From positions 11,222,001 through 11,286,000 of the forward strand of contig JBHGNT010000008.1 in assembly GCA_043228905.1 (NCBI GenBank): DNA of 64,000 bases. The letters run 5' to 3'. Shown here piece after piece: positions 2,931-35,922 of this stretch. Source of the DNA: Azolla caroliniana (lineage: Eukaryota > Plantae > Polypodiophyta). The position numbers were made by a program, and so were the translations under genes. The notes beneath the pieces are model-generated. The model was not told the origin of the DNA. It made no database searches and worked only from the letters and a program-made list of their open reading frames with translations. Within the stretch, counting starts at the first letter, position 1. Every line of letters begins with the position of its first letter.

Positions 2931-3267
2931 TGTTGAGCGGCAAGCTCAACCGGAGCCGGAACGGCTGAATAAGCCTGAGCCGGTAAGCCGGATGAATCGG
3001 TATGCCGGTGAGCAACTGAGCCGGTAGGCAGTAAGGACCGGTGAGCTGGGGAGCTGGTATGCCGGATTCAATCCATAACCAGAAGCCTAGTATAGGTTAG
3101 ACTACTAGGCAGTTATAGTCTCGTAGTTAGTGTCAAATGCTCGTGTGAGCATTGAAGTACACCGTACTTCTAACAGTCCCGTGCGGACTTGTATAAATAG
3201 CGCTGATGAGCACGTTGTAGATACAGAGCACAGAGTATTCATATAATTTTGAAAAATAGTGTGTTTT

Positions 3268-3268
<1 letters not shown>

Positions 3269-3310
<42 letters not shown>
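3269..3310 (+). repeat. (CT)n microsatellite of the A1 LTR, 5' flank of LINE-a
   Basis: Direct sequence. Confidence 0.95.
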
Positions 3311-3313
<3 letters not shown>

Positions 3314-6218
3314 GACATGAATGCTCGTACAAGAAGTTTCCAACTTGATTCACAAGAATCTTTCATGCCACATATCTCAAGGATGCAAGAGGATATGCAA
3401 ATGTATAACCGCTCTTCTAGCGATGAAAAAGATCCGGACCAATTTGGGAAGTTACTCCTACAAATGTGCAATAGTACCGGATTGCTTATTGCAAATGGTA
3501 TTTCCTTATGGCCCAACACTAATGGTTTTACATGTAGAAAACACAATGGAAATAGTGTGATTGACTATGTGCTACTTTCCGAATGTATTTTGGATCGTAT
3601 ACATAAATTCTCACTTGGTGAATGGACACCGGAATCCGATCATAGGCCTTTATGTATCGATCTCAAATGTATGCATAGGTTTGATTGTGAGAAGGCTATT
3701 GAAGATAATAAACAACCGCACTTGAGCATGAACCTTAAGCGAGCACCCATGTATTCCAAGATGGTTGAGGATATGTTACAAATGACAAAGATACAACATG
3801 GTGCCACACTAGAATGCAAATGGGAAGCTTTCAAGAAAGTCATTCTCTCATGTACAAACAAATGTTTTTCGACCAATCACACATCTTGGAAATGCACCAA
3901 GAAACTTAGGAAAAAATGGTTTGATAAAGAATGTCATGAAGCTCGAAAGTGCCTTATGGTTTTGGATGTAGTTAAGGATAAAGAGAATTACCAAAATCAT
4001 TTGCATGAGTATAAAAGGCTTATTCAAAGAAAGAGAAGAATATGGGAAGTTACTCAACAACTTATCCAAACGCAAGAGAAAGCACATGCATGTGCTAAAT
4101 TTTGGGGAAATCTAAAGGGAAAACGTGTTGAGAGTTATGGTGACTTAACTCTTCACGACTTGTCTATGCATTGTAAGAATTTATATGAGTTATCTCTTGC
4201 CGGAAAGATGATGTGTTATGGTTCTCTTTCACATATGCCTCCCTTCTTTACAATTGAAGATATATGCATAGGACTTAAGAAATTGGCCTCTCGAAAGGCA
4301 AGTGATCTTCAATGTATAAAGGCTGAAATGCTCAAATGGACGGGAAAGGAAGCACATATATGGATAAGCGATATGTTTAATGATGCATTGCAACATGGTA
4401 TGCCGTACGATTGGACTACAAATTGGATCAAACCTTTACATAAAGGTGGAGATATAAATAATGTAAACAACTATCGAACCATCATGGTTGGCTCATTAAT
4501 GGCAAAACTATTTGGATGTATAATGGAATCAAAGATAAGTGTATGGGCTGAAAAAAGTGGTAAGAGAGCTTATGGACAAGCTGGCTTTCGGAAACACCAT
4601 AGCACCATTGATCACCTTATCACCCTTCGAGTATTAACGGAGGAAAGTCGCCTTAGAGGTAAAGGTTTATATTGTTGCTTTGTAGACTTCAAGAAAGCTT
4701 TTGATATGGTACCTCGTGAGCATCTTTGGAGGCGAATGGAAGAACTTGAGGTGCCAAGTGAATATATGCTTGCAATTTCCCGAATTTTATGAGAAGGTTA
4801 TATGTTGTGTGCGCATGAGAGATAAACTTTCAGATTTTTTCAAAAGCACTATTGGTGTTAAGCAAGGATGCCCACTCTCACCAACACTATTTGGTCTATG
4901 CATTGATGAATTGGAAGAAATGGTTACCAAGTTTGCAAAGGAAGAATGTGTTGAAGAAGTTGCCATTGGGAATGTTGTGATTATGCTTTTGCTATATGCA
5001 GATGATGTAGTGCTTTTTGCAAATACTTTAGGAGATGCACAAAAGCTTATGAAGGCATTGGAAAAATTTTGCATGCATACTAAATTAAGTGTCAATAGCT
5101 CTAAAACAAAGATTATGCTTGTGAAGAGCCAAAAAAGAGATAAACCATGCATTATGTACAACAATGAGCCACTTGAATGTGTGGAAAGCTTCAAATATCT
5201 TGGCCTTGAAGTTCCTTCAAATCATAGATGGAATGAATGTGCTACACGCCGCTTAGAGGCAGGCAAGCGAGCATACTATGCATTTGAGAACACATGCAAT
5301 CTTGGAGATATTAAGTGTTGGGTCCTCAAGAAATATCTTTTCGACACTTTGGTGACACCGGTTCTTCTCTATGGGGTGGAAGTATGGGGCGGTAGCATCC
5401 CTAAATCTATGTGGAAAGAGTTTGAAAATGTCCAAAAGCATTTTCTTACCAAGTTTCTACAAGTTAAGAAACAAACGCCCTACACCCTCCTCCTCCTTGA
5501 GACGGGATCGCTTCCCATTGAGATCATGGCCATGGAAAGGGTTGTTGAATACATGCTTAAGGTTCAAAAAAGTCCCTCACATCGACTTCCTAGAATTGCG
5601 TGGGAAGCAAGCAAAAAGATCCAAAAGACGCATAAAAGCAAAATTTTGTGTTCCGGTTGGATGCAAGATATAGAAAAATGGTTTGGTAGATGGGATGCGA
5701 GACACTTGCTTCATGATGCATCATTAGATTCCTCTGTAAATGAGGCATTTTTGCAACGCCAATGTATCATGACATGGGACAAATGTGGAGGCTCACGCTT
5801 CACACATTATACTACACATGTTGCACCTAACTACAAAACCATATTCTTCGCGGAACGGGGAAATCGTACACATCCATACATGTTAGAGCCCATACCGTTA
5901 TCTTCCATTCGAACCATTGCTTCCATGCGACTTAGCTCACATGCATTGCGATGTGAAACAGGGCGTTGGGGTACAAGTGATGAGAGTGGTCGGTTATGCG
6001 CACTTTGCCCTAAACAAGTTCGCGAGTCTGAGTATCACACTTTGATACAATGCTCTGCCTTTGATCATATTCGACCATGCTTTACACATCTCTTCGATCG
6101 AGCCCAATCTTTGCATGAATTCCTCTCACAACCACAATGTGCACTCTCGATTGCAACATTCATTGGTAAAGTTCTTGAACATCGAGAGTCACTACTCACT
6201 TTCACACATATCACGTGA
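3311..6218 (+). pseudogene. LINE-a ORF2 (partial APE endonuclease, RT, CCHC), single frameshift near 4785-4790
   Basis: ORFs 3266-4792 and 4701-6218 join at ISRI/FYEKVIC across a T run. Confidence 0.88.
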
Positions 6219-6390: not shown

Positions 6391-7870
6391 CCTGTTTCGA
6401 CATATCCGGGACGTTCGGGCTTCCGAAGTTCCCAAAATCAATCTTCATGGGATGTCATGTGATTGGATGCTCCCGAATCGACAAACCATACGTTGTTCAA
6501 AGTGGAAGCGGTAGTTGATGCAAGTCCGGACATTGAGTGTGCTTCGTGCTTCACTATGAACATTCTGCCGCGGTCACCGTAGTCGGAGTTCGTGGTGTAA
6601 TTTGCTAGTTGTCGGCCTTGCTCACGCTTCTTTTTCCGACACTCCTCTTCTTAGTGGTTGGGTTTTCCGTAGTACCCGCACTGAACTGGGTTCCTACGGT
6701 TGGTTGGTCCGGCGTGATGACTCCCCCTTCCACCAAACTCTTTGGGGCCGTTTCTATCTGCTTGCCATTGGTGGGAGTTATGATGTTGATTGTGTTGACC
6801 TTGGCCGTATTGGCCTCTCCTGCCGTGACCGTGTCCTCTTCCTCCATCGAAGTTCGAATATAGCATTTGTCCTTCGTGTGCATTGTTCCTTTGACGCACG
6901 TGATTCTCTTCGACCAGCAATAACAATTGGAGATCAAAAAAGGAGGGAGGATTCTCTCTCGCGAGAACGACCGATCTTATTGCGCCAAATCGCAGTGCTA
7001 AGCCACCGAGGCATATCTGCACCATTTCTTCGTCGTCAATGCTAACATTGATCAATCTAAGGGCATCACACAACTCCTTAATCTTTAAGGTGTAGTTGCC
7101 GACTGACATGTCCCTTTGTTGGAGATTGTTCAGCACCTGTCGAGGTTGGAGCTTTCGTGCACCGTATTGGCTGCGAAGATCTTCTTGAGGTTTTCCCACG
7201 CCTACTTCGGCGTTTTTGCCTCTCGAATGTAGCCAAGCATATGATCATGAACGCATGATGCAAGGCAATACAACACACGGCTTGCGGCCTGATCTTAAGC
7301 GGGATAGTCGACATGTGTTGGGTTGGGGTGTGATTCGTGAGCTCCTTCAATGTAGCTCCACTAGCCTTGTCCGACAATATATTGATGCATCTTGTATTCC
7401 CAAGATGCAAAGTTTGTTCTGTCAAGCTTCTCGGTAGGAAGAGTGCTTCCCATTTGAGTATTCATGGTGATTTCTTCTCTGTCGATGGACCAGTTCTGTT
7501 GATTGTCGGCGTGCAGCACAACACAGTCGAAAATGCTTGAGCAAGCAACCACTCGCTCTGATACCATGTAAGGAAATGAGGAGGCAAGAGTGGTTGTAAT
7601 GCAACGGAAGATGAGTGTGTGTGTGTGTCTCAAGACAGAGTGAGAGAGATTGAGAGAGAGAGAGCTCTTAAGATAGAGATAACAAAACTGTATATTAACC
7701 AAAATTACATCAAAGCATAAGACATCCAACAACAACTAAGTTACAAGGGGTTGGTTTAAATACCAACTGAGCTAGGGCAAGTCCCCTTTCTACTATTTAC
7801 AAAACTAGCCCGGTATGTCCATGAGCTAGTGTGAAACCTATCTATGGGAAGTTGAGTTCGATTCTCAACA
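6391..7870 (-). mobile_element. Ty1/copia C1, 5' portion: LTR 7567-7870, tRNA-iMet PBS 7553-7566, degenerate gag and protease start
   Basis: LTR reads TGTTGAGAATC...CCTTACA on minus, followed directly by TGGTATCAGAGCGA. gag LPTEKLDRTNFASWEYKMHQY; zinc knuckle CGYYGKPNH. Homologous to C2. Confidence 0.9.
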
Positions 7871-9111
7871 CTTTGGACCAAAATTTTGTTTCACATCTAA
7901 ATATTCGTGATGGAAGAATCGTATACGCTCAATGGATGACAATTTTTGCCTATAGTCATTATCATTATAATGGTCCCATGCCAACAATTTTGCCTCTTCT
8001 GTAGTCAAGCCCACGTAAATTTTACATTCTGCATACTTGAAGAAAAAGGTAGTAGGATGTTCTCTTACAAGTTGCCTTTGGGCTTTGGCCGAATGTGATC
8101 CACCAATAAGAAAGTAGTTGTATTGGTTGTGCTTCCTAACATCAAATTCTTCAATAGAACCACATTCATTCGGATCAACCATGACTATGAAGGGCATCAT
8201 TGTGGCGTGGGGATTAATCTTCATTTTCTTCTTCAGATTTTGTATGTGCATTTTGTGCGTCTACTTTATTTCAAGAGGTCTTCGTCCTGTTTTAATATCT
8301 ACGAGTGGTCGATGGATGTGAGTGATAGGTAGGTTAAACACTTGACCTTTTCACACAAGCTTCTTTTGCATAATATCTCTTCGAATTTTATTTTGCTTAG
8401 AAGATAAAACACCAAATGATAGTTTAGCTCCTGGTGTTTTCTGAGTTTCTTCATCATCAGTTGAACTTGAAGTCTCTGACTCAGACATTTTAGTGACCTT
8501 CTTCTTGGCCGGTCTCGACTGGACAACCGCCTTTTTGTGTGGCATCTTCGTAGGTGATGGTGAGGTATTTCTTAAGGTCACATGGCCCTGAATATATGGT
8601 CTTAACGTTGTAATAAGATTATTTGAAGTTTGGATGGCGACTTTGAAAGATTCTGGGCCACAAGAATCTTTAACAAGCCAATCTTCAGAGACGTACATTT
8701 TTCGTACTCCCTTTGAGCAATCCACCAACAATATAAATTTTAGGGAGACGGGGGTCTTCATAACCAAGTCGTAATATTCGGCCATAAATAAAAGGGAGTT
8801 CTTTATTGAGTTGACCATGACTCTTAGATTTTGTGACCAACAAAACAACTTTTTTGTTCAAGTCCACATATTGCATTGCCCAGTCTAGGTCTGTAATGTC
8901 TCGGTCTGGCAAATTTTCTCCCCCTACTGCTACAACCATTTTTTTTTTGCTAACTTCGTCAGATGGTTGCTCAATTTCATCGTGGCTAAACAATAATTTC
9001 TTCCCTTTTTTGACATTTGTCCCCACAGGTTTTTTTGAGGTCTCAACTAGGGAGTTATGATATGTCAAATGGATTTTCTTGATAGGATGGTTTGTTTGAT
9101 TCTCAGCGGAC
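7871..9111 (-). pseudogene. Decayed gene encoding a ParB/Srx-fold domain, 3' part cut off by the C1 insertion
   Basis: ORFs 8351-8848 and 7865-8251 are in one frame separated by two stops: FNLPITHIHRP..RPLEIK*..HIQNLKKKM..PFIVMV..YFLIGGSHSAKA..CKIYVGLTTEEAKLLAWDH..RQKLSSIERI, collinear with the ParB N-terminal pattern. Upstream frame 8685-9111 has a possible splice acceptor at 9112-9113. Confidence 0.62.
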
Positions 9112-9440
9112 CTATTATAAAGAAGAAGTCAAGAAATATCACTAAATTGGGACCATAATTAAATAACTTTTGTGTGAGATATCCTCTACCCAAGTTAAAA
9201 CATATAGATACTATTGGAATATAGATGCTTAAAGAACCTAGAGTGAATATTTAGGGACCAAAATGCTAATTTTGAAATGGAAATTGTTTTTCCTATAATA
9301 ATCTTTAAAATTGGTGTTTATATGGATTCAGGATTAAAAGTATAGTCTAAAATCATTAAGTTTTGCTTCATAATGGCAAAATTGATCTTTTTTTACCTAA
9401 GTTTCCTTCGCCAAAAAACTCGTACTTAAAAGTCTCAATG

Positions 9441-9680
9441 TGTCAAGTTGGTGTTCAAGGAATGTAAAATTAATCTATAATCTGCATAAGTTGTCATTTT
9501 AAATGCCAACTCGATACAATATATCAAGTTGATGTGGCATTTAAAGTTTTTCATTTTAAATGCCAACTAGTTTCCATTTTAAACGCCAACTCAATATAAT
9601 GTATCCAGTTGGTGTAAAAGTCTTCATTTTTAATGCCAACTCGATACATTGTATCGAGTTGGTGTTAAAAGCCTCCTTTT
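9441..9680. repeat. Cluster of palindromic repeats (CCAACTCGATAC-N3-GTATCGAGTTGG), probable DNA-transposon subterminal region
   Basis: Copies at about 9506-9532, 9586-9612 and 9636-9662, plus half-sites. The last copy is a perfect 12-bp inverted repeat extended by TTTTAA/TTAAAA. Confidence 0.8.
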
Positions 9681-20369: not shown

Positions 20370-23086
20370 TCGGTTCGATATAGTAGCCCCTGCTCCTTAG
20401 TGCCACTGACATACCGGAGTACGCGTTGTGTGCACTGAAGGTGCTCCTCGGACGGTCGGGCCATGAACTAACTAATCACCCCGATCGGGTAGCTGAGATC
20501 TGGTCGGGTGATGGTCAAGTATATAAAGCTTCCAACTATCTAACGGAACCTCGTCGGGTCGCATACCTTTCCGGAATAGGGGCGAAGCTTGACGGTTCTA
20601 TCCAGAGGAGTTGAGACGGACTTACAGTCGTCCATCCTGAATTTGAAGAGCGTATTCAGCACATAATGCCGTTGGCTGATTAGTATGCCCGCGGGGGTGC
20701 GGATCACTTCGATCCCGAGGAAGTAATGAAGGTCCCCAGATCCTTCATGTCAAATGATGCCACAAGCTGGAGCTTTACGTGGTCCATCTTACCTAGGTTG
20801 GCGCCGGTGATGACCAAGTCATCAACATAAAGTAAAATGCTAACCCGCCCGAGTCGACCTTTCCGGATGAATAGTGAGGAGTCCGATTTTGATGTCTCAA
20901 AGCCAACTGACACAATCTTCGCGTTCCAGGCACGCAGGGCTTGCTTTAGTCCATAAAGGAACTTCTTCAATCGGCACACCGCCGAAGTGTTTGTTCCGGA
21001 GTGAAATCCGGGGGGTTGTACCATGTAGGAATGCGTTCTTTACATCCATCTGATGTAAGTGTCACCCCTTTGTTGCAGCTACCGCGAGCAAAACATGGAC
21101 GGTCTTCATCTTCGCGACCGGCGCAAACGTCTGATTGTAGTCGATGCCGTGTTTCTGCATATAGCCTTTCGCTACTAACCGGGCCTTGTATCGGTTGACT
21201 GAGTCGTCAGTGTTGTACTTGACCTTGTGCACCCACCTACATCCGATCGGCTTCACACCTTTTGGTGCGTCAACCAAGTCCCAGGATTCATTCTCTGCCA
21301 ATGCGCGCATCTCTTCCTCCATTGCGGCACACCAATTCACGTCCTTCGCCACTTCTACGTAGCTTTCTGGCTCACGCACTTCCGCTACACGTGTCATGGA
21401 TGCATAGTGATGCACCATGTACTCATTGTAACGGAACTGCACAATAGGGTTCTTCTGGCGGGTAGATCGGCTTAATTGCTCATTAGCCGCAGTTGAGGCT
21501 TTCTTGGCCGACGCAGGCTTCGCTCTCGAAGACCTACATCACTTCCCTCAGAGTCGGACTCGCATCGATCTGACTCGTTCCTATCCGCGTTGTAATCTGA
21601 CACCTTCTTCTTCCCTTTTTCCTTGCACGTAAGCCGTCTCCTCGGCTTCCTGCACGGGGAATGCACGACTGAGTCTCCACTACTCCCCGACTCTTCATCA
21701 GACTGGTCGAACCGACTCATCGTCCATTTGGTCCGCTTAACCGAAACGAAATCAGACTCTCTTCGCAGGTCCCAATTTTAGGTTCATCCGAAGGCATCTC
21801 TACCTCGCTGACCTCATCGTTGAAACTCGGATTGGAGGTGAGGTCCAGAGTCAGAGGCAAGTACCAGGATGTGGACTCGTCAAACACAATGTCACGGCTC
21901 ATGCGCGCTTGTTTGGTGCGAGGGTTATAACACTTATAACCCTTCTGCTCATTCGAATAGCTGACCAAGATATACTTCTCAGCTTTCGCGTCCAACTTCC
22001 TCCGTTTCTCCTTCGGCACATGCACATACGCAATGCTACCGAAAACTCTCAAGTGTCGTAGATTCGGCTTCCTTTCGAAATATAGCTCATGTGCTTACAC
22101 TTTTTCTCCGATCCGATTCTGAATGTACACTGCGGTTCATACCGCCTCACCCAATAGAACTTGGGCAAGCTTTTCTCCTCTAGCATTGCCCGTGCCACTT
22201 CTACAATGGACCGGTTCTTCCTCTCGGCCACACCGTTTTGCTCTGGCATGTATCTACAATTGAATTCGCGCCGATTTCCCATCTGTTACAGATAGCCGTT
22301 GAATTGACCAGAAAAGTATTCTTTTCCGCCATCTGACCGCAAGCACTTGATCTTTCGTCCTATGTCCGTTTCCACAAACCCTTTGAGGTCCCGGAAACAG
22401 TCGAAGACTTCACTCTTCTTCTCGATGAGGTAGATCCACGTGTGTCGTGTATAGTCGTCGATGAAGGAGACAAAATATCGACTCCTTCCAAGACTAACGT
22501 TTTGTGCCGGCCCCCATACATCGGAATGTATCAAGTCGAGCTTATTCCGGCTCCAGTTACGCTCGTTAGGGAAAGGAAGTCGGTGTTGCTTACCTAGCTA
22601 GCAGGCTCCACAAATATGTGCCTTCCGACCACTAAATTTGGGCCATCCAAATACCACCTGTTTCAATTGCAGGTCCTGAAGCCGTTGATAGTTGACGTGG
22701 CCTATCCGCTTGTGCCACAACTCCACATTTGACTTGACTTTTTGTCCTTTCACGAACATTGCGGTGCCACTATCACTAGAGTCGAGGATAAACATCCTCC
22801 TGTCTCTGCGCCCTTGTGTAATAACTCGGCCTTCTTCCTCGATGAAGCACCCAAGATGCGTGAACTGGACTTACATCCCCTGGTCGATGATCTGCATGAC
22901 TGACACCAAATTCTTCGTGATTTTCAGGATGTGTAACACTTTCATAAGTTTCCCTTTTTGCCCGACATGGTTCAAGGGAACTTCACTGGTATTTGCGATC
23001 GGATGCGGAGTGTCTTCTCCGGTTGCGACTACTCTCGGTTGCATCGGTTTTTCTAGGTATGAGAACCACTCCTTGTAGCACGTCAT

Positions 23087-23347
23087 TGTTGCACACAGTG
23101 CTCGGCCACAACCGAGGAATAGAATCAACTCACAGAAAACAGGAAATACAAAGTGCACGAAGACAATAGAGAGGAGAGTACACAGGGTGTTTTACGTGGA
23201 AAACCCTAAATGGGAAAAACCACGGGAGTCCTCAAACTCCAACTATCACTCTACACAGAGATGTACAATGGTGAAGCTACAAGGCAACAACCTTGAGCTC
23301 ACTGTCTTCGCCACAGGCGGCGGTAATACACAGAGGCAACGACCTCC

Positions 23348-23378
<31 letters not shown>

Positions 23379-23728
23379 CGGCTGCTATCTTCACTCCCTC
23401 TAAGTGGCAAACAGAAAAATAGGCAACAACAACAAACTGTTTTCCCTAAGTCATATTTATACACATATGACTTTCGGGCTATTTACAAATATAGCCTCAA
23501 GGGCCCTTGGCAAACATATTCACAAATATGTCCCCGCATCCGGATCTCTCTCCGGGTACATTCGTCATCCGGCTCCGTAACCGGGGTCTTCATCATCCGG
23601 CTCCGTAGCCGGGTACTCTTCATCCGGCTTCATGCCGGGTACTCTTCATCCTCCGGTTCCGTAACCGCAACCGGGCTTGCCGTCATTCATCTCCGGACAT
23701 CCCATCCGGAGGGACCGAAATCCCAACA
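23087..23728 (-). repeat. B0 3' LTR (642 bp)
   Basis: Direct repeat of 27843-28508 with TG...CA ends. Confidence 0.96.
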
Positions 23729-23738
23729 AACTCCCCCT

Positions 23739-26700
23739 TCACTTCGGCATGGGATGTCTCTCCAATCCAGTCCTCTTCCGACATGCTTCCAGCTTGTCGG
23801 GTGTGAGCACCTTGGTCAGCATATCCGACCCGTTCTCGTCCGTGTGGACCTTCGTCAGCACGAACTCCTTGTCTTCTATCCTTTCCCGGATCGAGTGGTA
23901 TCTACGCTGGATGTGTTTCGTCCGGGAATGGTAGGCCGCGTTCTTCGCAAGGTGGATGGCACTCTGACTGTCGCAGTAGAGTCGGTACTCCTCCTGCCGG
24001 ATACCGAGCTCTCTAATGAAGTCCTTCATCCATATTATTTCCTTGCCGGCTTCAACAGCCGCCATGTACTCCGCCTCCGTGGTTGACAACGCAACCGTCT
24101 TCTGCAGCCTCGACTGCCACGAAACGGCTCCCCCTGCATACGTCATCATATACCCTGATGTGGACCGGCTGGTATCCGCATCAGCCGACATATCCGAATC
24201 GGTAAAGCCGTCGAGTTCGGGCTTGCCAGAGCCGAATCGGAGGCACACGTTTGCCGTGCCCTTCAGGTATCGGAGTATCCACTTGACCGCGTTCCAATGC
24301 TCTTTGCCGGGATTGCTCATGTACCGGCTCACCACTCCAACTGCATATCCTATGTCCGGTCTTGTACACACCATTGCGTACATCAAGCTTCCAACGGCAG
24401 AGGCATATGGTACTTTCATCATGTCCTCCTTCTCAGCCTTTGTCTTGGGGCTTTGCTTGCTGGACAACTTGCAGTTTGCAGGGAGGGTTGACCCGACCGG
24501 TCTTGCTTCCGACATGTTGAACCGGTGAAGCACCTTTGTCACGTACTTCTCCTGTGACAGCCACAACTGCTTCTTCTTCCGGTCCCGGATGATGTGCATC
24601 CCTAGTATTTGCCTTGCCGGACCCAGGTCCTTCATTGAGAAGGTTCGGTGAAGCGCTTTCTTCAGCATCCGTATCTTGACCTGGTCCCGTCCGACGATCA
24701 ACATGTCGTCCACGTACAGGAGGAGTATCAGAAAGTCTCCTCCTTCGAACTTCTTCACAAACACGCAGTGATCAGACTGCGTTTTGTGGTACCCTTCGTC
24801 GGTCATGAAGGAGTCGAACTTCCGGTACCATTGCCGGGGAGCCTGCTTCAGTCCGTAAAGGCTCTTCTTCAACCGGCATACCAGGTGCTCCTTCCCTTTC
24901 TTCTCGAATCCTTCCGGTTGCTGCATGTAGATCTCTTCTTCGAGGTCACCGTGAAGGAATGCCGTCTTCACGTCCATCTGTTCTACCTCGAGGTCCATGC
25001 TTGCCGCTATGCTCAGTACCGTCCGGATGGAGGTCATCTTCACTACCGGGGCAAATATCTCGTCGAAGTCGACGCCCTTCTTCTGCTGGAACCCCTTCAC
25101 CACGATCCTGGCTTTGTATCTCGGGGGGTTTCCGGCATCTCCCGGTTTCAGCTTGAACACCCACTTGTTTCGAAGTGCCCGCTTTCCTTTCGGCAACTCC
25201 ACAAGTTCATATGTGTGGTTCTCATGCAGGGAATCCATCTCCTCCTGCATGGCACTTAACCACCTGCGGCTATGGGTGTCAACCTTTGCTTCTTCAAAAC
25301 TCTCCGGCTCCCCCTCGTCGGTTAGCAGCACGTGCTCTGGTTCCGGAAATCTCCGGGGGGCCCTTCTCTCTCTTAGAGGATATCTCCGTCCCGGAGCTTC
25401 GGTAACCGGCTCCTCCGTTTCCTCTTCATCCGAATCCATTTCGGGATCGGGGCCGGTTCCGGTATCAGTTTCATCTTCCTCGGCCGGTTCTGTTTCTTCA
25501 CCGTCTTCGGCCGGATCCTCGAGTGCTAACCGGTCCCTTGCCGATCGGGACTGCTCCTCGTAGAGTTGATCCTCACCGGTCGACTTGGAGCTCTTCATCT
25601 TCTTCTCCGACTCCCAGTCGGCGAGTGTCTTGTCCTCCATGAAGATGATATCACGACTCCGGAATATCTTCTTGTCGACCGGGTCCCATACTCGGTAGCC
25701 GAACTCGTCGTTGCCGTAACCGAGGAATATGCATGGCCGGGTCTTTGGATCTAGCTTTCCTCTCCGGTCCTTTGCCACATGCACATATACGAGACACCCG
25801 AACACCTTCAGATGCCGGTAGGACACTTCCTTACCGGTCCACACTCTCTGTGGCGTGTCTCCATTCAGGGGTACTGAGGGTGATCTATTTATCACGTATG
25901 TCGCCGTCGACATTGCCTCAGCCCAAAACCCCTTGGGTAATTTCGCATGCGCCAGCATACTCCAGACCCTCTCCATTATGGTCCGGTTCATCCTCTCGGC
26001 CAGCCCGTTCAGTTCCGGCGTCTTCGGCACAGTAAACTCGAGCCGGATTCCCATCGAACGGCAATACTCCTTAAATTGCCCTCGGTATTCTCTTCCGTTA
26101 TCCGCTCGTAGTGCTTTCAGCTTCTTGCCGGATTCCCTTTCCACTCTCGCGTGGAATTCTTTGAAGACGGACAATACTTGGTCCTTTGTCTTCATCGGTG
26201 CCGTCCACAGCTTCCGGCTCTGGTCATCTATGAATGTCACGAAGTACTGGGCTCCGCCATGTGACTTCGTTTCTACTTGACACACGTCAGTGTGCACCAA
26301 CTCCAATGGTGCGCTACGTCTCGTCGGTGGCCTTGAGTGGAAGGAGGTTCGGTTCTGCTTACCGGCCAGGCAATCGGTGCACTTCTCCAGGTGCACATGC
26401 TTCACTGGAATAAGGTTGTCTTCTGCAAGCCTCTTCATCCCCTTCTCACTCATGTGGCACAGTCTCTTGTGCCACAGCTCACCGGTAGTGTCGGCTGCCA
26501 CGTTCAACTCCTCCGGACATAGTCGGGAATTCATCAGGTACAGTGTGTTGATCTTCCGGGCCCGAGCTACTATCAGGCTCCCTTTGCTGAACTTCATGAC
26601 ACCGTTCCGGATGCTACCCGTGTAGCCTTCATCCTCTAGCCTCCCGGCCGAAATCAGATTTAATCGAACCTCCGGAACGTGTCGTACATCTTTCAGCAGC

Positions 26701-27812
26701 ATCTTGCATCCGGTTGATGTCATCAGCCACACGTCTCCTATGCCGGCAATCCGGCATGTACCTTCATTTCCCATCCGGACATAGCCGTACTCACCGGCTG
26801 TGTAGGATGAGAAGTATTTCTTCTCCGGGGTCAGGTGGAACGACGCTCCGGAATCGACCACCCAGGTCATCTCTTCACCGGCAAGGTTCAGCTCCCTCTC
26901 TTCGGTAATGAGCATTATCTCTTCTTCACTTGCCGCGAGTGCCGTCGTTCCTTTCCGGTCCTGCCCTCGCCGATCCGGACCTCTCCGGTCCGTGGCTCCC
27001 CGGTATGCACCGTTTCGCTTCGGTGACTTCTTCGAATCGGTGTCGTCGGCTCCGTTGTCTTTTCGGTAATGCCGACAGTTCTTCCGGAAGTGCCCCGGCT
27101 TCCCACAGTGGAAGCATGTGGGCCTTCCTCTTGACTGCGACCGGGTCCCCGACTTCTCCCGTCTTTGCGGACTCCGGTTCCATTGTCTTCCCCGTTCCGA
27201 TTCGGTAAGCAGCGCCTTCGAGTCGGAGGCCGGTTCTTTATCTCTCCGACGCGCTTCTTCATTCAAAATACTTGTCTTTACCGTTTGTAGGGACAAGTTA
27301 TCTTCGGTGCAGGAGGTGCTGAGAGTCACCACCAAGTTCTCCCAGCTTTCCGGCAATGTACACATCAGGATGATGGCTTGCATTGCATCCTCCAACGGGA
27401 ACTTAATCGCCGCAAGCTGGTTCACGAATCCCATGAACGTGCTTACGTGTTCCACCATGCTCTCGCCGTCCCGGTACTTGAGGTTCACTATCTTCCTCAT
27501 CAGGGAGGTCCGGTTCAACGCATTCTTCCTCTCGTAGAGGCCCGACAGCTTCCGCCACATCTCATATGCGTTGGTGTCGTTCGCCACATGTTGTAGAACG
27601 CTCACGTCGACGTATTGCCGAATGGTTGCAACGGCTTTCCGGTTCAGAAGCCTCCATTCCGTCTCAAGTACCCCCTTGGGTATTTCCGACCTGTCGATCG
27701 GTTCATACAGGTCCCGAACAATGAGCAGATCCTCCATCTTTATCTTCCAGTCGGCGTAGTTCTACGCATTCAGCACCATCATCCCCGGCTGCCCGCTGCC
27801 GCCGCCTTCCAT
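23739..27812 (-). CDS. copia gag-pol polyprotein (gag, CCHC, protease, GAG-pre-IN, integrase, RT, RNase H); in-frame TAG at codon 17
   Basis: 1332-aa ORF 23739-27737 with CFHCGKPGHFRKNC, VDSGAS, VHTD..ADNG..AERMNRT, LYVDD, DSD..EAEY. In-frame upstream ATG at 27812 with TAG at 27762-27764. Confidence 0.93.
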
Positions 27813-27842
27813 TTTCTGCACTGCCTTCGCTCTGATACCACT

Positions 27843-28508
27843 TGTTGCACACAGTGCTCGGCCACAACCGAGGAATAGAATCAACTCACAGAAAACAGGA
27901 AATACAAAGTGCACGAAGACAATAGAGAGGAGAGTACACAGGGTGTTTTACGTGGAAAACCCTAAATGGGAAAAACCACGGAAGTCCTCAAACTCCAACT
28001 ATCACTCTACACAGAGATGTACAATGGTGAAACTACAAGGCAACAACCTTGAGCTCACTGTCTTCGCCACAGGCGGCGGTAATACACAGAGGCAACGATC
28101 TCCTCTCTCTCTCCCTCTCTCTCTCTCTCTCTCGGCTGCTATCTTCACTCCCTCTAAGTGGCAAACAGAAAAATAGGCAACAACAACAAACTGTTTGCCC
28201 TAAGTCATATTTATACACATATGACTTTCGGGCTATTTACAAATATAGCCTCAAGGGCCCTTGGCAAACATATTCACAAATATGTCCCCGCATCCGGATC
28301 TCTCTCCGGGTACATTCGTCATCCGGCTCCGTAACCGGGGTCTTCATCATCCGGCTCCGTAGCCGGGTACTCTTCATCCGGCTTCATGCCAGGTACTCTT
28401 CATCCGGCTTCATGCCGGGTACTCTTCATCCTCCGGTTCCGTAACCGCAACCGGGCTTGCCGTCATTCATCTCCGGACATCCCATCCGGAGGGACCGAAA
28501 TCCCAACA
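27843..28508 (-). repeat. B0 5' LTR (666 bp)
   Basis: Direct repeat of 23087-23728; adjacent PBS. Confidence 0.96.
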
Positions 28509-31115: not shown

Positions 31116-31365
31116 CGGCGTGCTGGACGACCTACTGCAGTTCGTCATCATCCGTTGTAGTCGCCGTTGCCGTTGCCGTGCTCTTCTCCACCTTGTTTCT
31201 TGAGGTTGCCGAGTGTCACGTTTCTTCTCTTGGCGGCGCATCCTTGTTCTTTTAGCGTGCTCGTCATGTGCGAAATGCCAATGTGACTACGACATAACAC
31301 AAACTCGGCTAAGTCTCGAACCCATTTATTTTATCCTTTTTTTTTCTTTTCTTATTGGCACTACA

Positions 31366-32172
31366 ATGTCTAAACGAAAGGAACACAAGGATACACAAGA
31401 CGAGGCTATAAGTAAGGAGGACTTTTTGGATATGTTTAACCGTTTAACAAAAATAGAGACGGATATGAAAAAATGGGTGAAAGACGCCGAAACCCACAAG
31501 AAAAAAGATAGAGAGGAAAAAGACACCCTCAAGGCCGAAATAGAAAAACTTAAAGAGGAAAACACAAACCTCAAACAACAACTTAATGACATCAAGGTAT
31601 CCCGAGAGGACGGTGAAATATCCTCCATAGAGGATATAAAAGATGAGATCAAAAAAGTTAAAGAGGAGGTTAAAAATAACATAGAATTAGCAAAAACGGG
31701 TTGGGTAGATGTCGTTAAAAGAAACATTAAAAAAGAAATAAAGGATGAAAATATTGTTAATACCACCCTCGAAGAGGAGAAAATGCGTCAGGCCCGACGC
31801 CTAAATGTGCGTGTCACTGGGCTCAAGGAAGGTGCATCCCCGGACGAGGATGCACAAACACTCGGGAAAATGCTAGGGTACACAACGACCCTACCTATCA
31901 CCAAAGCTTGGAGGGCCGGACGCGACACAACTAGGAAGAGAGCCTTAGTTCTTCAATTTAAAGACTTAGACTCTAGAATCACTTTCTTTAAGAAGAGACC
32001 AATTCTTCGAGGATTGGGTGGGGACCCTATCTATCTCGATGAAGACCTCACCAAGATGCAAATTGAGCATCGCAAGAGTTGTATGCCAAAGGTTATGCAA
32101 GCTCGCAAAGACGGGCATCGCGCCTTTTATCGAGATGGGCGAGTGATCATAAATGATCGCACTACTAATTGA
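31366..32172 (+). CDS. LINE ORF1 protein (coiled coil plus L1/Tnp22-type RRM and CTD), 268 aa
   Basis: ATG at 31366; K/E heptad region; RRLNVRVTGLKE and IYLDEDLT motifs typical of ORF1 RRM/CTD. Confidence 0.8.
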   Translation: MSKRKEHKDTQDEAISKEDFLDMFNRLTKIETDMKKWVKDAETHKKKDREEKDTLKAEIEKLKEENTNLKQQLNDIKVSREDGEISSIEDIKDEIKKVKEEVKNNIELAKTGWVDVVKRNIKKEIKDENIVNTTLEEEKMRQARRLNVRVTGLKEGASPDEDAQTLGKMLGYTTTLPITKAWRAGRDTTRKRALVLQFKDLDSRITFFKKRPILRGLGGDPIYLDEDLTKMQIEHRKSCMPKVMQARKDGHRAFYRDGRVIINDRTTN

Positions 32173-35100
32173 CGGCGTGTGGCCCATGTGACAGAAAACA
32201 CACTTAGGATGACCTTATGGAATTGTAACGGCGCACTCTGGACACACCCCGGCCGCCTAGAGGGGATATTAAAGGAATCAGATATAGTTTGCCTAGTAGA
32301 AACACACCAAAGCCCAAATAGGGGACTCCCACGAGTCGAAGGATTTCGTTGGGAGTCGGCTTTTAGACAAACCTCACGTCGATGCACTACCAGGGGATCT
32401 GGAGGTGTCGCAATATTGTTTCGGAGGGAGCTACATAATAGGATAGAAATACTGAGCACTGACCCAGAAGCTCGTTTTATGTGGGTGAAAGTCTCCACAA
32501 GCAAGGACAAGGCAGTAATTTTCGCCATTTGTTACTTCCCCCCAAAAGGCTCTCGTTATAATCTGGCTGGCGAGGCGAGATTAGTTGATGACGGAGTGCC
32601 ACATGGGCCTTCCCCATATGAACCTCTATCGGATGACATAATTCGATATTCTTCCCAAGGCGAAGTATTCCTTGTAGGAGACTTTAATGCGAGGACCCAA
32701 TCCCGACAATGCACAATATTTCAAATGAATAGAAACCTAGAAATGGTAAATGTTGATCCTTCAGACATAGACACCACACGTAAATCAAAGGATCAAGGTG
32801 CAGACGCCACGAGCTTTGGCCATCATTTGCTCGAACTCGGTAGTCGGCACCAGATGGTCATATATAATGGTTTAGCCAAGTGGCCAGGTTCGGAAGAGCT
32901 CACATGTTTCCCACATGGAGGAGGGGAAAGCACAGTCGATTATCTAATAGGACGCCCTGAAGCCACCCACATGATTAACTCCTTCCGAGTGGCCCCATGT
33001 CCTATTGGCGCGGACCATAGTTTCTTATACTTCGAGATAAAATGCGATATCTCTAACGTCACCAACTCTAGTCAACCACGCCATGACATCACAATACATT
33101 TCACACATGAGCTCTCTGACATATATGCTCGACATGTTCAAGCCCATCTGTCCTCCCTTGATCCCTCCCTACCTTTAGAGAGCCTTAATACGAAACTCAC
33201 ACACATCCTTCATTCTGCAGCGGTTAGCAGCTTCCCATACACGAAACACTCCAATCAAGGTAAAGTAGGATCTATGCCACAAAATAGATGGTATGATGAG
33301 GATTGTAGGTGCTTACATCGACAACTTACAATATCGCAACTCAGTGGTAGTATTACCTCAGTACAAGCTCGTAAAGAAATGCGCAAGATGACACGTCGTA
33401 AGAGACGAGCATGGGAGGCATCCCAATATTGGGAACTCTACCACATGCTCATGAGTAACGATTGTGCCACTGCATGGAAGAGATTACGGGAACCAAGACC
33501 ACAAACACCCATCGAAGATCCCGAAACTTGGCACACTTATACAGAGAGACTTTACCACATCCCAAACCAACCACCCATTCCAATGCCTTCCACACCCCGA
33601 CCTACTGTGGGGACACTCTTCACGACCTCTAGGGTCACGAAGGTCATAAAGAAATTACAACATAGGAAGTCCATGGACCACACAGGGTTGCGAGCAGAAC
33701 ACATCATATACGCGAGAGAGTGCCTAGCTCCCTTACTAACTCTAATCTTCAATCGTGCCCTTGCAGAGGGTTTTCCATCACAATGGACCATGAACACAGT
33801 GGCCCCCATACATAAGGGGGGGGACCCCATGGACCCAAATACTTATAGGACCATTATGATAGGTCATACCCTTGCTAAATTATATGGTGCAGTAATGGAG
33901 GCAGAGCTTAGCGAGTATATGGAGACCTTAAATCTTCGTGCACCTGAACAGGCCGGTTTTAGACGAGCCTTCTCCACTATTGACCATATCTTCACACTTA
34001 GATGCTTAATTGACCAGACTAAGGCTCGCAAGAAGAAACTATATTGTTGTTTTGTGGACTTCCGCAAAGCCTTTGACACGGTCCCTAGAGAGCGGTTGTT
34101 TGATAGGCTTAAGAGCTTGAGGATACCAGATGACATGGTTTGGGCCATCTACGCACTATATGAACAAGTGTCCGGGTGTGTTCGATGCCCAGGCGGCATA
34201 TCCGATAGTTTCACTAGCACTATTGGTGTAAAACAAGGTTGCCCCTTATCTCCGACTCTTTTTGGGATCTACATTGATGAGATCACAGATTTTATTGCTC
34301 GTAAGGGAGGCAATGGAGTAGTCCTTGGAGATACGCAGGTGCGTATCTTGCTCTATGCAGATGACATAGTTTTGCTCTCTGAATCCGAACACGACCTACA
34401 AAGGCACCTTAATGCCTTAGATGACTTTTGCACACAACGAGGATTGGTAGTGAATCTAGGGAAAACTAAAGTCCTTATCTTCCACACGTCGGCCCAAGTT
34501 AGGGCTAAGTGTCACCTAACTATCTCCCATAGCCCAGTTGAGGTGGTTGGATCATATGTCTATCTCGGAGTCACTTTCAGTGCCCGCTCAGGTAAATTTT
34601 CGATGACACAAGCAGCGAAGGATAGACTTACAAGAGGACATGCATCCCTCTCACTCCTCGAGAGACAATGCCACCAAGCATACTTCCAAGAGCCACGAAC
34701 TAAAGGGTGGCTCTTTGACTCATTAGTGACTCCCTCTCTCATGTATGCATCAGCGGTTTGGGCCCCAGGACTACCATCTTTCATGTGGACGCAATTAGAG
34801 AGACCATTGGTGATGATGTTATCACGCCAACTCCGAAGCAAATCGTCGGTCCCACATGACATTATTAGGGCTGAGTTCACTCTACCCCCTATGTTAGTAG
34901 AAGCACTTTTTCAACTGGTAGTCTTTATACACAGGATACATAACCAACCACTTGATAGAATATCCCACCAAGCCTTTAAGGCTTCTCGAGCATTGTATGA
35001 GTCCGGCTATACTAGCTCATGGTATGGCATGATGGTGAGTTGGCTTCTTGCCAACGGTCTAGACATTATTAACCTCCCCCCCCTTAAGTACGACCACACG

Positions 35101-35922
35101 AATGATAACACTTTACTCTCTCATGAGGACCGTAATAAAGTAATACGCCAAGAAATATGGCAAATTTATACCCGGTATAAATGGATCACCCCACTAGAGC
35201 CACTCCCATCTAAAATGTCGTACTATAAAGAACACTTTATGCACTTCTCTGAGTTAGGTTTTATCACGCGCCCAAAATATCTAGATGTATTCTTACCACA
35301 TGCACTAAGGGTTGCCATTGGTCAACTTAGAATATCATCTCACCAACTTGAGATTGAGAATGGACGTACTAATGGAGTCCCTAGGGAGGAAAGGATATGT
35401 AGGTTATGCCACATAGAGATAGAGGATGAGTACCATTTTACATGCAAATGCCCCACCTATGCCGAGATAAGGGCAAAATACCAAGACATACTTGGTTCCT
35501 CTCCCACCCTCCCTAAACTATTAGATACACTAGATATAAAGAAATTAGGTAGATACATCTTAGAATTGAAACACCACAGAGAGAACAAATTACAAAACGT
35601 TGATAATAATGTTGCTAATGTTTACCAACATATAACAAATGAAGTTTTTCAGGAACAGGGGGAGACAATGAATGTCGACACACCTGTACCACTCGGACTT
35701 CTCCTTGATGAAGCAGAAAATCAAAGAAGAACCAAACGCCCTCGGATGCCGGGTTTCAAAGCAACTCGACGAGATGTAGAAGCAATAACGAAAATAAGGG
35801 AACGTGAACTACACCGCCTAGAAGCCATGGCTAGGGCACTCTATGCATCGGGACCATGGGTCACACCCACACCAAAAACTTTTGACCTCCCACTTCTTTT
35901 TGAGAGACTTGGGTGGAAATGA
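32173..35922 (+). CDS. LINE ORF2 (APE endonuclease, reverse transcriptase, CCHC finger); start uncertain (first ATG 32209)
   Basis: WNCNG, ETH, GDFNAR, STVDY, ADH; YCCFVDFRKAFD, KQGCPLSPTLF, LLYADD; ISSHQLEIENGR..CRLC..EDEYH..C. No internal stops. Confidence 0.93.
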   Translation, partial: RRVAHVTENTLRMTLWNCNGALWTHPGRLEGILKESDIVCLVETHQSPNRGLPRVEGFRWESAFRQTSRRCTTRGSGGVAILFRRELHNRIEILSTDPEARFMWVKVSTSKDKAVIFAICYFPPKGSRYNLAGEARLVDDGVPHGPSPYEPLSDDIIRYSSQGEVFLVGDFNARTQSRQCTIFQMNRNLEMVNVDPSDIDTTRKSKDQGADATSFGHHLLELGSRHQMVIYNGLAKWPGSEELTCFPHGGGESTVDYLIGRPEATHMINSFRVAPCPIGADHSFLYFEIKCDISNVTNSSQPRHDITIHFTHELSDIYARHVQAHLSSLDPSLPLESLNTKLTHILHSAAVSSFPYTKHSNQGKVGSMPQNRWYDEDCRCLHRQLTISQLSGSITSVQARKEMRKMTRRKRRAWEASQYWELYHMLMSNDCATAWKRLREPRPQTPIEDPETWHTYTERLYHIPNQPPIPMPSTPRPTVGTLFTTSRVTKVIKKLQHRKSMDHTGLRAEHIIYARECLAPLLTLIFNRALAEGFPSQWTMNTVAPIHKGGDPMDPNTYRTIMIGHTLAKLYGAVMEAELSEYMETLNLRAPEQAGFRRAFSTIDHIFTLRCLIDQTKARKKKLYCCFVDFRKAFDTVPRERLFDRLKSLRIPDDMVWAIYALYEQVSGCVRCPGGISDSFTSTIGVKQGCPLSPTLFGIYIDEITDFIARKGGNGVVLGDTQVRILLYADDIVLLSESEHDLQRHLNALDDFCTQRGLVVNLGKTKVLIFHTSAQVRAKCHLTISHSPVEVVGSYVYLGVTFSARSGKFSMTQAAKDRLTRGHASLSLLERQCHQAYFQEPRTKGWLFDSLVTPSLMYASAVWAPGLPSFMWTQLERPLVMMLSRQLRSKSSVPHDIIRAEFTLPPMLVEALFQLVVFIHRIHNQPLDRISHQAFKASRALYESGYTSSWYGMMVSWLLANGLDIINLPPLKYDHTNDNTLLSHEDRNKVIRQEIWQIYTRYKWITPLEPLPSKMSYYKEHFMHFSELGFITRPKYLDVFLPHALRVAIGQLRISSHQLEIENGRTNGVPREERICRLCHIEIEDEYHFTCKCPTYAEIRAKYQDILGSSPTLPKLLDTLDIKKLGRYILELKHHRENKLQNVDNNVANVYQHITNEVFQEQGETMNVDTPVPLGLLLDEAENQRRTKRPRMPGFKATRRDVEAITKIRERELHRLEAMARALYASGPWVTPTPKTFDLPLLFERLGWK

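Follow-up and report, generated by a model that had tools for sequence, protein, structure and literature searches.

The gene relic at positions 7871 to 9111 of the window (the whole 64,000-nucleotide stretch of the Azolla caroliniana genome that was analysed) is exon 2, read on the minus strand, of a decayed cargo gene belonging to a DNA transposon of about 9 kb. The fern transposon family from which it derives is a land-plant addition to a ParB-methyltransferase design published for transposons of algae. The cargo protein, as predicted from intact copies, consists of an N-terminal domain of unknown fold, a charged linker, a ParB fold, a helical domain, and a beta-class methyltransferase, in that order. 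The copy in the window is dead. Its features are listed below by window position; the prefix C8 marks positions on the contig that holds the window.

7567 to 7870, minus strand: LTR of the Copia-type element inserted in the gene; its partner, about 13.6 kb to the left, is 93% identical
7871 to 7875, plus strand: 5-bp target-site duplication (TSD) CTTTG of the LTR-retrotransposon insertion, with its second copy at C8:11215932-11215936
7871 to 9111, minus strand: 5' part of cargo gene exon 2, pseudogenised by two stops and one frameshift near 8750
7871 to 7924, minus strand: start of the ParB-like helical domain (predicted to bind DNA), whose first helix is truncated by the insertion (homology, model, VIA-align)
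7925 to 8404, minus strand: predicted ParB/Srx-fold domain, including the conserved Asn of the WDH-N helix (AF2 model of intact paralogue, Foldseek, VIA-align, motif tallies)
8104 to 8090, minus strand: GGSHS, box II without Arg (motif tally)
8405 to 8559, minus strand: low-complexity linker rich in K, S, and E (sequence)
8560 to 9111, minus strand: faster-evolving N-terminal domain of unknown fold (dN 0.27-0.69 between subfamilies; Atlas scores below 0.8)
9112 to 9436, minus strand: 3' part of predicted intron 1, with AG acceptor at 9113-9112 (comparison with intact copies)
9437 to 9674, no strand assigned: palindrome array, including decayed half-sites, cut at about 9682 by another LTR insertion
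near C8:11211200-11212200: further cargo exons of the window copy, with DIPY (homology search)
near C8:11195200-11195600: last cargo exon of the window copy (homology search)
C8:11194330: right terminal inverted repeat (TIR) of the window copy

An earlier note on this DNA, made from the letters alone, had read a ParB-like domain through two stops, and every peptide it quoted is present in frame -3 (8857 to 7865), which is interrupted by a TGA stop at 8353-8351 and a TAG stop at 8263-8261. Missing from that note was a frameshift that falls within the N-terminal domain, near 8750, and divides the tblastn alignment into pieces at 9116-8700 and 8746-7871. The possible splice acceptor was correctly placed, as the exon starts at 9111, which is the start of exon 2 in intact copies, and the relic corresponds approximately to residues 12-425 of a 974-amino-acid protein model. 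No Pfam match at E ≤ 1 and no PDB sequence match was obtained with the relic. Searching its own 523-Mb genome gave 1206 candidate relatives; 150 of these were scored, show 83-85% identity, and for the most part have open frames. Among named relatives, a Ceratopteris protein comes closest (71%). At the DNA level the relic is 71% identical to the young family, for which reason we regard the window copy as old; its best genomic relative reaches 85%, over part of its length.

The earlier note expected the 3' half of the gene to lie beyond the insertion, flanked by a duplication of CTTTG. The duplication is there, CAAAG on the minus strand at both flanks, and the reading frame resumes at C8:11215936, after the second CAAAG. 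The displaced half was found 14-35 kb to the left, where two further LTR insertions interrupt the gene ahead of its last exon and the right TIR. CAAAG is duplicated by two separate LTR insertions in this gene (at 7871-7875 and at C8 ~11215480 / 11212250). Exon 1, the transposase gene, and the left TIR of the window copy were not found in the 95 kb searched to the right or with a combined TIR and TSD pattern.

Intact copies show how the gene is built. Six exons with GT-AG junctions yield an uninterrupted 974-amino-acid frame (a predicted model with five introns), and its first internal junctions, after exon 2, recur in the Ceratopteris gene model. The matching acceptor and the six-exon model agree with the proposal that this is a spliced, "eukaryotised" gene. 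Among 26 young copies, 12 have the frame open, one of these with a short deletion over GGSHS. The displaced C-terminus had been suggested to hold a helix-turn-helix (HTH) domain or a methyltransferase; both a helical, HTH-like domain and a methyltransferase are predicted there.

The gene had been proposed to be cargo of a DNA transposon, and the elements around its young relatives bear this out with TIRs, TSDs, and a transposase. Ten 20-kb stretches around young copies have in common a unit of about 9 kb with sharp borders. Both ends were located in 28 of 30 stretches, with a 4-bp TSD in 27 of these 28 and a match at three of four bases in the remaining one. The elements are 7.6-9.5 kb in size, and the young family has TIRs of 29 bp, exact matches to which number 788 genome-wide (0 for the control). 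Each 9-kb element contains only two long genes, transposase and cargo, arranged head-to-head, and no parA partner. The transposase, encoded on one strand of the element, is 927 amino acids long and matches DUF7869 (E = 7e-51); its frame is open in 14 of 26 young copies, 7 of which have an open cargo gene as well. Its motifs IDGMDQ, QLDN, and GHTHDHID presumably correspond to those of Sola1, and we take the transposon to be a Sola-like cut-and-paste element with a DUF7869 transposase. Divergent subfamilies have different TIRs; a TIR pair was found at 8 of 17 loci, all with a 4-bp TSD, by a script that favoured pairs having a TSD. A retroelement origin of the gene was considered and rejected, as the gene belongs to the TIR element. 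At C2:12240500-12241300, four copies of the terminal sequence of the element recur at a spacing of 154 bp, a tandem repeat of the TIR end.

The relic is assigned to the ParB superfamily on the strength of a structure predicted for an intact paralogue that is 85% identical to it. The AF2 model covers 311 residues of this paralogue and was built from 76 sequences (pLDDT 88.9). Foldseek returned 13 matches at E ≤ 0.001, the best (1.1e-5) to ParB; those listed are all ParB or Noc and span both domains. All 29 Foldseek matches listed are to ParB, Noc, PadC, KorB, Srx, or their kin; whole-model TM-scores are low (0.25-0.41), and rmsd is high in the two-domain alignments. VIA-align ranked PadC highest (Z 9.4, rmsd 2.9, 96 residues aligned) and pNOB8 ParB second (Z 8.2, 206 aligned), followed by SerK (Z 8.1) and Srx (Z 7.5). 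The structural comparison for which the earlier note called was thus positive for the ParB/Srx fold (best E 1.1e-5; VIA-align Z 9.4), and this region of the cargo protein is predicted by modelling to have the fold of the ParB N-terminus. Taken alone, the helical domain scored Z 3.5-5.6 against KorB, ParB, and SopB, with KorB at the top, all within the range of chance. Sequence searches of Pfam and PDB with the relic and with family profiles gave no ParB match and three chance matches; DUF6551 was weakly matched by 9 of 25 family members.

Replacement of the arginine of the GxxR motif, noticed at first in the relic, turns out to be a property of the whole family. In box II, GGxH, the histidine is kept in 62 of 65 rows and the next position is serine in 48; arginine occurs in none of the variants listed. 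The asparagine in the helix after box II is kept in 58 of 60. The available text of one study describes this arginine as needed for NTP binding in the ParB folds tested there (bioRxiv 10.1101/2025.10.10.680097), and a phage ParB-like activator is described, in the text available, as working without the NTP residues (PMC13229309). Of the earlier label "CTPase/Srx-fold", the fold therefore stands and "CTPase" is doubtful, because the arginine is absent family-wide. With that arginine gone, the ParB domain most likely acts as a scaffold for loading, dimerisation, or oligomerisation and not as a canonical CTP clamp.

The C-terminus of the cargo protein is predicted from its sequence to be a beta-class N6A/N4C DNA methyltransferase (PF01555). 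One exon matches this family at E = 3e-8 (34.2 bits against a cut-off of 26.7), and fused homologues reach 8e-18, with DpnA and CcrM as the nearest solved structures. DIPY precedes DLFSGTG (an S-adenosylmethionine [SAM] motif of the type FxGxG), and both are kept. The catalytic Asp leans to 6mA as the product; DIPY departs from DPPY, and the motif alone does not fix 6mA versus 4mC, the beta-class fold being described in the available text of PMC8885841 as having switched between the two repeatedly. Phage matches cover only the methyltransferase, at about 25% identity; viral contigs yielded no relative, a word-based search for short methyltransferase relatives yielded one among 3009 candidates, and a further profile search among proteins of 1674-4780 amino acids yielded none. 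Given the viral contigs, the weakness of the phage matches, and the single hit among 3009, we name no donor.

The cargo domains are under strong purifying selection. In nine comparisons between subfamilies synonymous sites are saturated, and dN is 0.08-0.20 in the ParB fold, 0.08-0.21 in the helical domain, and 0.03-0.37 in the methyltransferase exons; for the transposase it is 0.16-0.33 (six comparisons) against 0.08-0.21 for ParB. So low a dN at saturated synonymous sites implies that the cargo matters to the lineages that propagate.

The earlier note linked the ParB gene to a palindrome cluster about 330 bp away. In the window the cluster indeed begins about 330 bp upstream of the gene and contains three full sites (9507-9531, 9587-9611, and 9637-9661, with 2, 3, and 0 mismatches), spaced by 80 and 50 bp. 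The 15-bp core of the array, CGATRC-N3-GYATCG, occurs 4352 times genome-wide, compared with 17 for the reversed pattern. Linkage was surveyed at 111 loci that are kin to one another (31 genomic and 80 metagenomic), 105 of which contain the ParB region. Where the flank was long enough, the transposase lies upstream on the opposite strand at 34 of 35 loci and the methyltransferase downstream at 69 of 69. The array core lies upstream of the ParB region at 48 of 53 loci, which, allowing for their kinship, upholds the link; a 2-kb control region gave six single matches in total.

Four arm positions beyond the search pattern keep their symmetry in 171-177 of 188 distinct sites although the bases themselves vary, one of them occurring as three pair types. 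The 268 spacings cluster at 31-33, 40-44, 50-53, 62-63, 71-73, 81, 92, 102, and 122 bp, a helical phasing at multiples of about 10.3 bp (mean cosine 0.43 over 36 distinct spacings, reached by none of 100,000 random sets, the period being chosen from seven tried) that can come partly from tandem duplication of one unit. We place the array in predicted intron 1 because a short first exon precedes it in four subfamilies. Young copies have 2-16 sites, with differences even between near-identical copies; some multi-copy subfamilies have only 0-2 recognisable sites, which counts against a role for the array. Between subfamilies the TIRs change while the array core and the predicted recognition region remain similar; this favours the cargo protein over the transposase as the likely binder.

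On balance we lean towards a self-binding, self-methylating cargo of a Sola-like transposon, one that favours its own expression or transposition; binding, target, and benefit are here what we infer. The ParB-fold/helical module would bind the intronic palindromes of the element as a dimer, probably through the helical domain. With the sites in phase, several dimers could load on the same face of the DNA, a short way downstream of the divergent promoters. The fused amino-methyltransferase would then methylate the element in cis, probably at N6-adenine, and this methylation would favour expression or transposition. Any such mark appears to give no lasting shelter from the host. Among 26 young copies, rare C-to-T changes per 1000 number 15.6-18.6 at CG, 18.1-21.5 at CHG, and 3.3-4.1 at CHH; the rate at CG within the array is 23.3. 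CG and CHG sites thus decay about 4-5 times faster than CHH sites, array included, much as in neighbouring repeats. Lasting protection from host 5mC is accordingly not supported, and protection, if any, would be transient, limited to certain cell types, or absent.

That lack of protection would suit autoregulation, in which the protein binds the array as a KorB-like operator and represses or counts the divergent genes, methylation acting as a local switch rather than in anti-silencing. In four subfamilies the array follows closely on the short first exon and lies between the two head-to-head genes; the helical domain matches KorB best; and site number varies from 2 to 16 among near-identical copies. 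Autoregulation alone, however, does not explain the strong constraint on the whole methyltransferase, and a repressor would be more easily lost by cheating copies; we consider it unlikely. Central sites can also serve transposition directly, as Mu enhancers or strong central sites pair element ends. Were the cargo a helper of the transpososome, ParB might load at the central array and spread along or loop the DNA to pair the ends, or methylation might time excision to replication. The central position, the phased sites, and the near-obligate linkage with a transposase fit such a role, although to our knowledge most DDE transposons need no such helper. ParB proteins are described as bridging and spreading on DNA (bioRxiv 10.1101/2025.10.10.680097, available text), but loss of the arginine that tested ParB folds need for NTP binding argues against CTP-driven sliding, and we judge a helper role quite improbable.

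The protein might instead act on RNA or throughout the genome and have no particular connection with the array, in which case the palindromes would be bound by a host factor or be a minisatellite by-product. Eukaryotic amino-methyltransferases have often moved to RNA (PMC4738411, available text), the helical-domain match is weak, and the tie between protein and array is indirect. Against this stand the symmetric arm changes around a core that stays fixed between subfamilies even though their synonymous sites are saturated, and the parallel arrangement of ParB and inverted repeats in red-algal Plavaka elements (bioRxiv 10.1101/2025.02.11.637652, available text), so that we give the idea little credence.

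The nearest published parallel to the self-methylating cargo favoured here is Sola1-1_Ec32 of Ectocarpus, which bears on its opposite strand a gene for a 1104-amino-acid ParB-like and N4C/N6A methyltransferase protein and for which self-binding and self-modification have been proposed (PMC12477816, available text). Likened by architecture, the fern transposon is probably, like Sola1-1_Ec32, a Sola-type DDE element, and the two share a 4-bp TSD, termini starting AAC, and an opposite-strand accessory ParB-like and N4C/N6A methyltransferase gene (PMC12477816). Sola1-1_Ec32 is from a brown alga, measures 21.5 kb, has an imperfect TIR of 282 bp and two intact copies, and its gene is called Ectocarpus-specific; "palindrom" does not occur in the main text (PMC12477816). 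The fern family, in contrast, is from a land plant and has elements of 7.6-9.5 kb, TIRs of 29 bp, hundreds of copies, and a phased intronic array. In the Bostrychia Plavaka elements PAG2/PAG3 a ParB-like protein lies beside tandem inverted repeats, with a PF01555 methylase, and self-modification is again proposed; these differ in having an EnSpm/Plavaka transposase, a ParB fused to a 2OG oxygenase, and the methylase on a separate, SET-fused gene (bioRxiv 10.1101/2025.02.11.637652, available text). The earlier suggestion of a possibly uncharacterised ParB-plus-palindrome module therefore holds for the module; "uncharacterised" was too strong, the pairing and the array idea having been published for brown and red algae.

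Fusions of ParB to N6/N4 methyltransferases are reported as common in bacteria and phages (bioRxiv 10.1101/2025.10.10.680097; PMC4738411; available text of both). Prokaryotic ParB, Noc, and KorB resemble the predicted fern protein in a ParB-CTPase fold followed by a helical domain, and in palindromic sites, which for the fern protein are candidate ones (same sources); the fern protein differs in its lack of the GxxR arginine and of parA, its five introns, its extra N-terminal domain, and its transposon context. None of the group-1 eukaryotic methyltransferase clades described in the available text of PMC4738411 fits the plant ParB architecture. Bdelloid N4CMT and Marchantia DN4MT1 are likewise bacterial-type beta-class PF01555 enzymes in eukaryotes, but they are host genes with SPPY that make 4mC, N4CMT using a chromodomain (PMC8885841, available text). 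The fern enzyme is transposon-borne, with DIPY and ParB. Another comparison is with anti-silencing MULEs of the VANDAL/VANC type, in which an accessory protein binds repeated motifs in its own element and VANC leads to loss of 5mC. VANC is unrelated to the fern cargo; the fern enzyme would add a mark, and fern copies lack protection from CG/CHG decay.

A profile search gave 612 representatives at E ≤ 0.001. Of the 150 listed, thirty were checked, and those with a name come from the streptophytes Chara, Riccia, Diphasiastrum, Adiantum, and Ginkgo; several listed relatives carry the ParB region fused to a methyltransferase. The plant family is not described in the available texts of PMC4455052, PMC5751038, PMC4738411, PMC8885841, and bioRxiv 10.1101/2025.10.10.680097, and the literature searched held no land-plant report, although supplements, subscription journals, or Repbase may hold the family. 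One distant homologue carries a SAM domain, and a Chara gene model contains two tandem ParB-methyltransferase units. Look-alikes in the ESM Atlas include mollusc, sponge, and cnidarian clusters (0.95-0.96), fungal DUF3723 (0.94), and a phage ParB cluster (0.93), leads that hint at a wider eukaryotic ParB-like group; no paper joining DUF3723 and ParB was found in the literature searched.

We tentatively entertain, with rather less than even confidence, a broader reading, in which a recently active land-plant transposon family would put an arginine-less ParB fold to a new use, guiding an adenine methyltransferase that, together with a parS-like address, makes up a complete self-addressed epigenetic writer. 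It would set a bacterial mark at hundreds of fern loci and would have accompanied the streptophytes from Chara to Ginkgo. If true, a land-plant transposon would write a DNA mark that is not the host's and would supply ferns with 6mA or 4mC, and the protein would be a natural site-targeted methyltransferase. The fern family makes the self-modification proposal for algae testable, with 7 of 26 young copies having both genes open and a 15-bp candidate core; natural variation in site number and the existence of several subfamilies would serve the same test.

The neighbourhood of the relic contains further elements. A frameshifted LINE (3260-6218, plus strand) is nested in the retrotransposon block that splits the cargo gene, and another LINE (31204-35922, plus strand) has an open ORF1 of 322 amino acids and an open endonuclease/reverse-transcriptase frame of 1249 amino acids. 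The Copia-type element at 23086-28508 has an open frame of 1340 amino acids (23739-27761, minus strand) and LTRs that are 95% identical. Outside the window, 50-60 kb to its left (C8 ~11162200-11171200), lies a complete 8991-bp element of a divergent subfamily of the transposon, with a ParB region that is 73% identical, TIRs, the TSD TGAA, and 15 palindromes.
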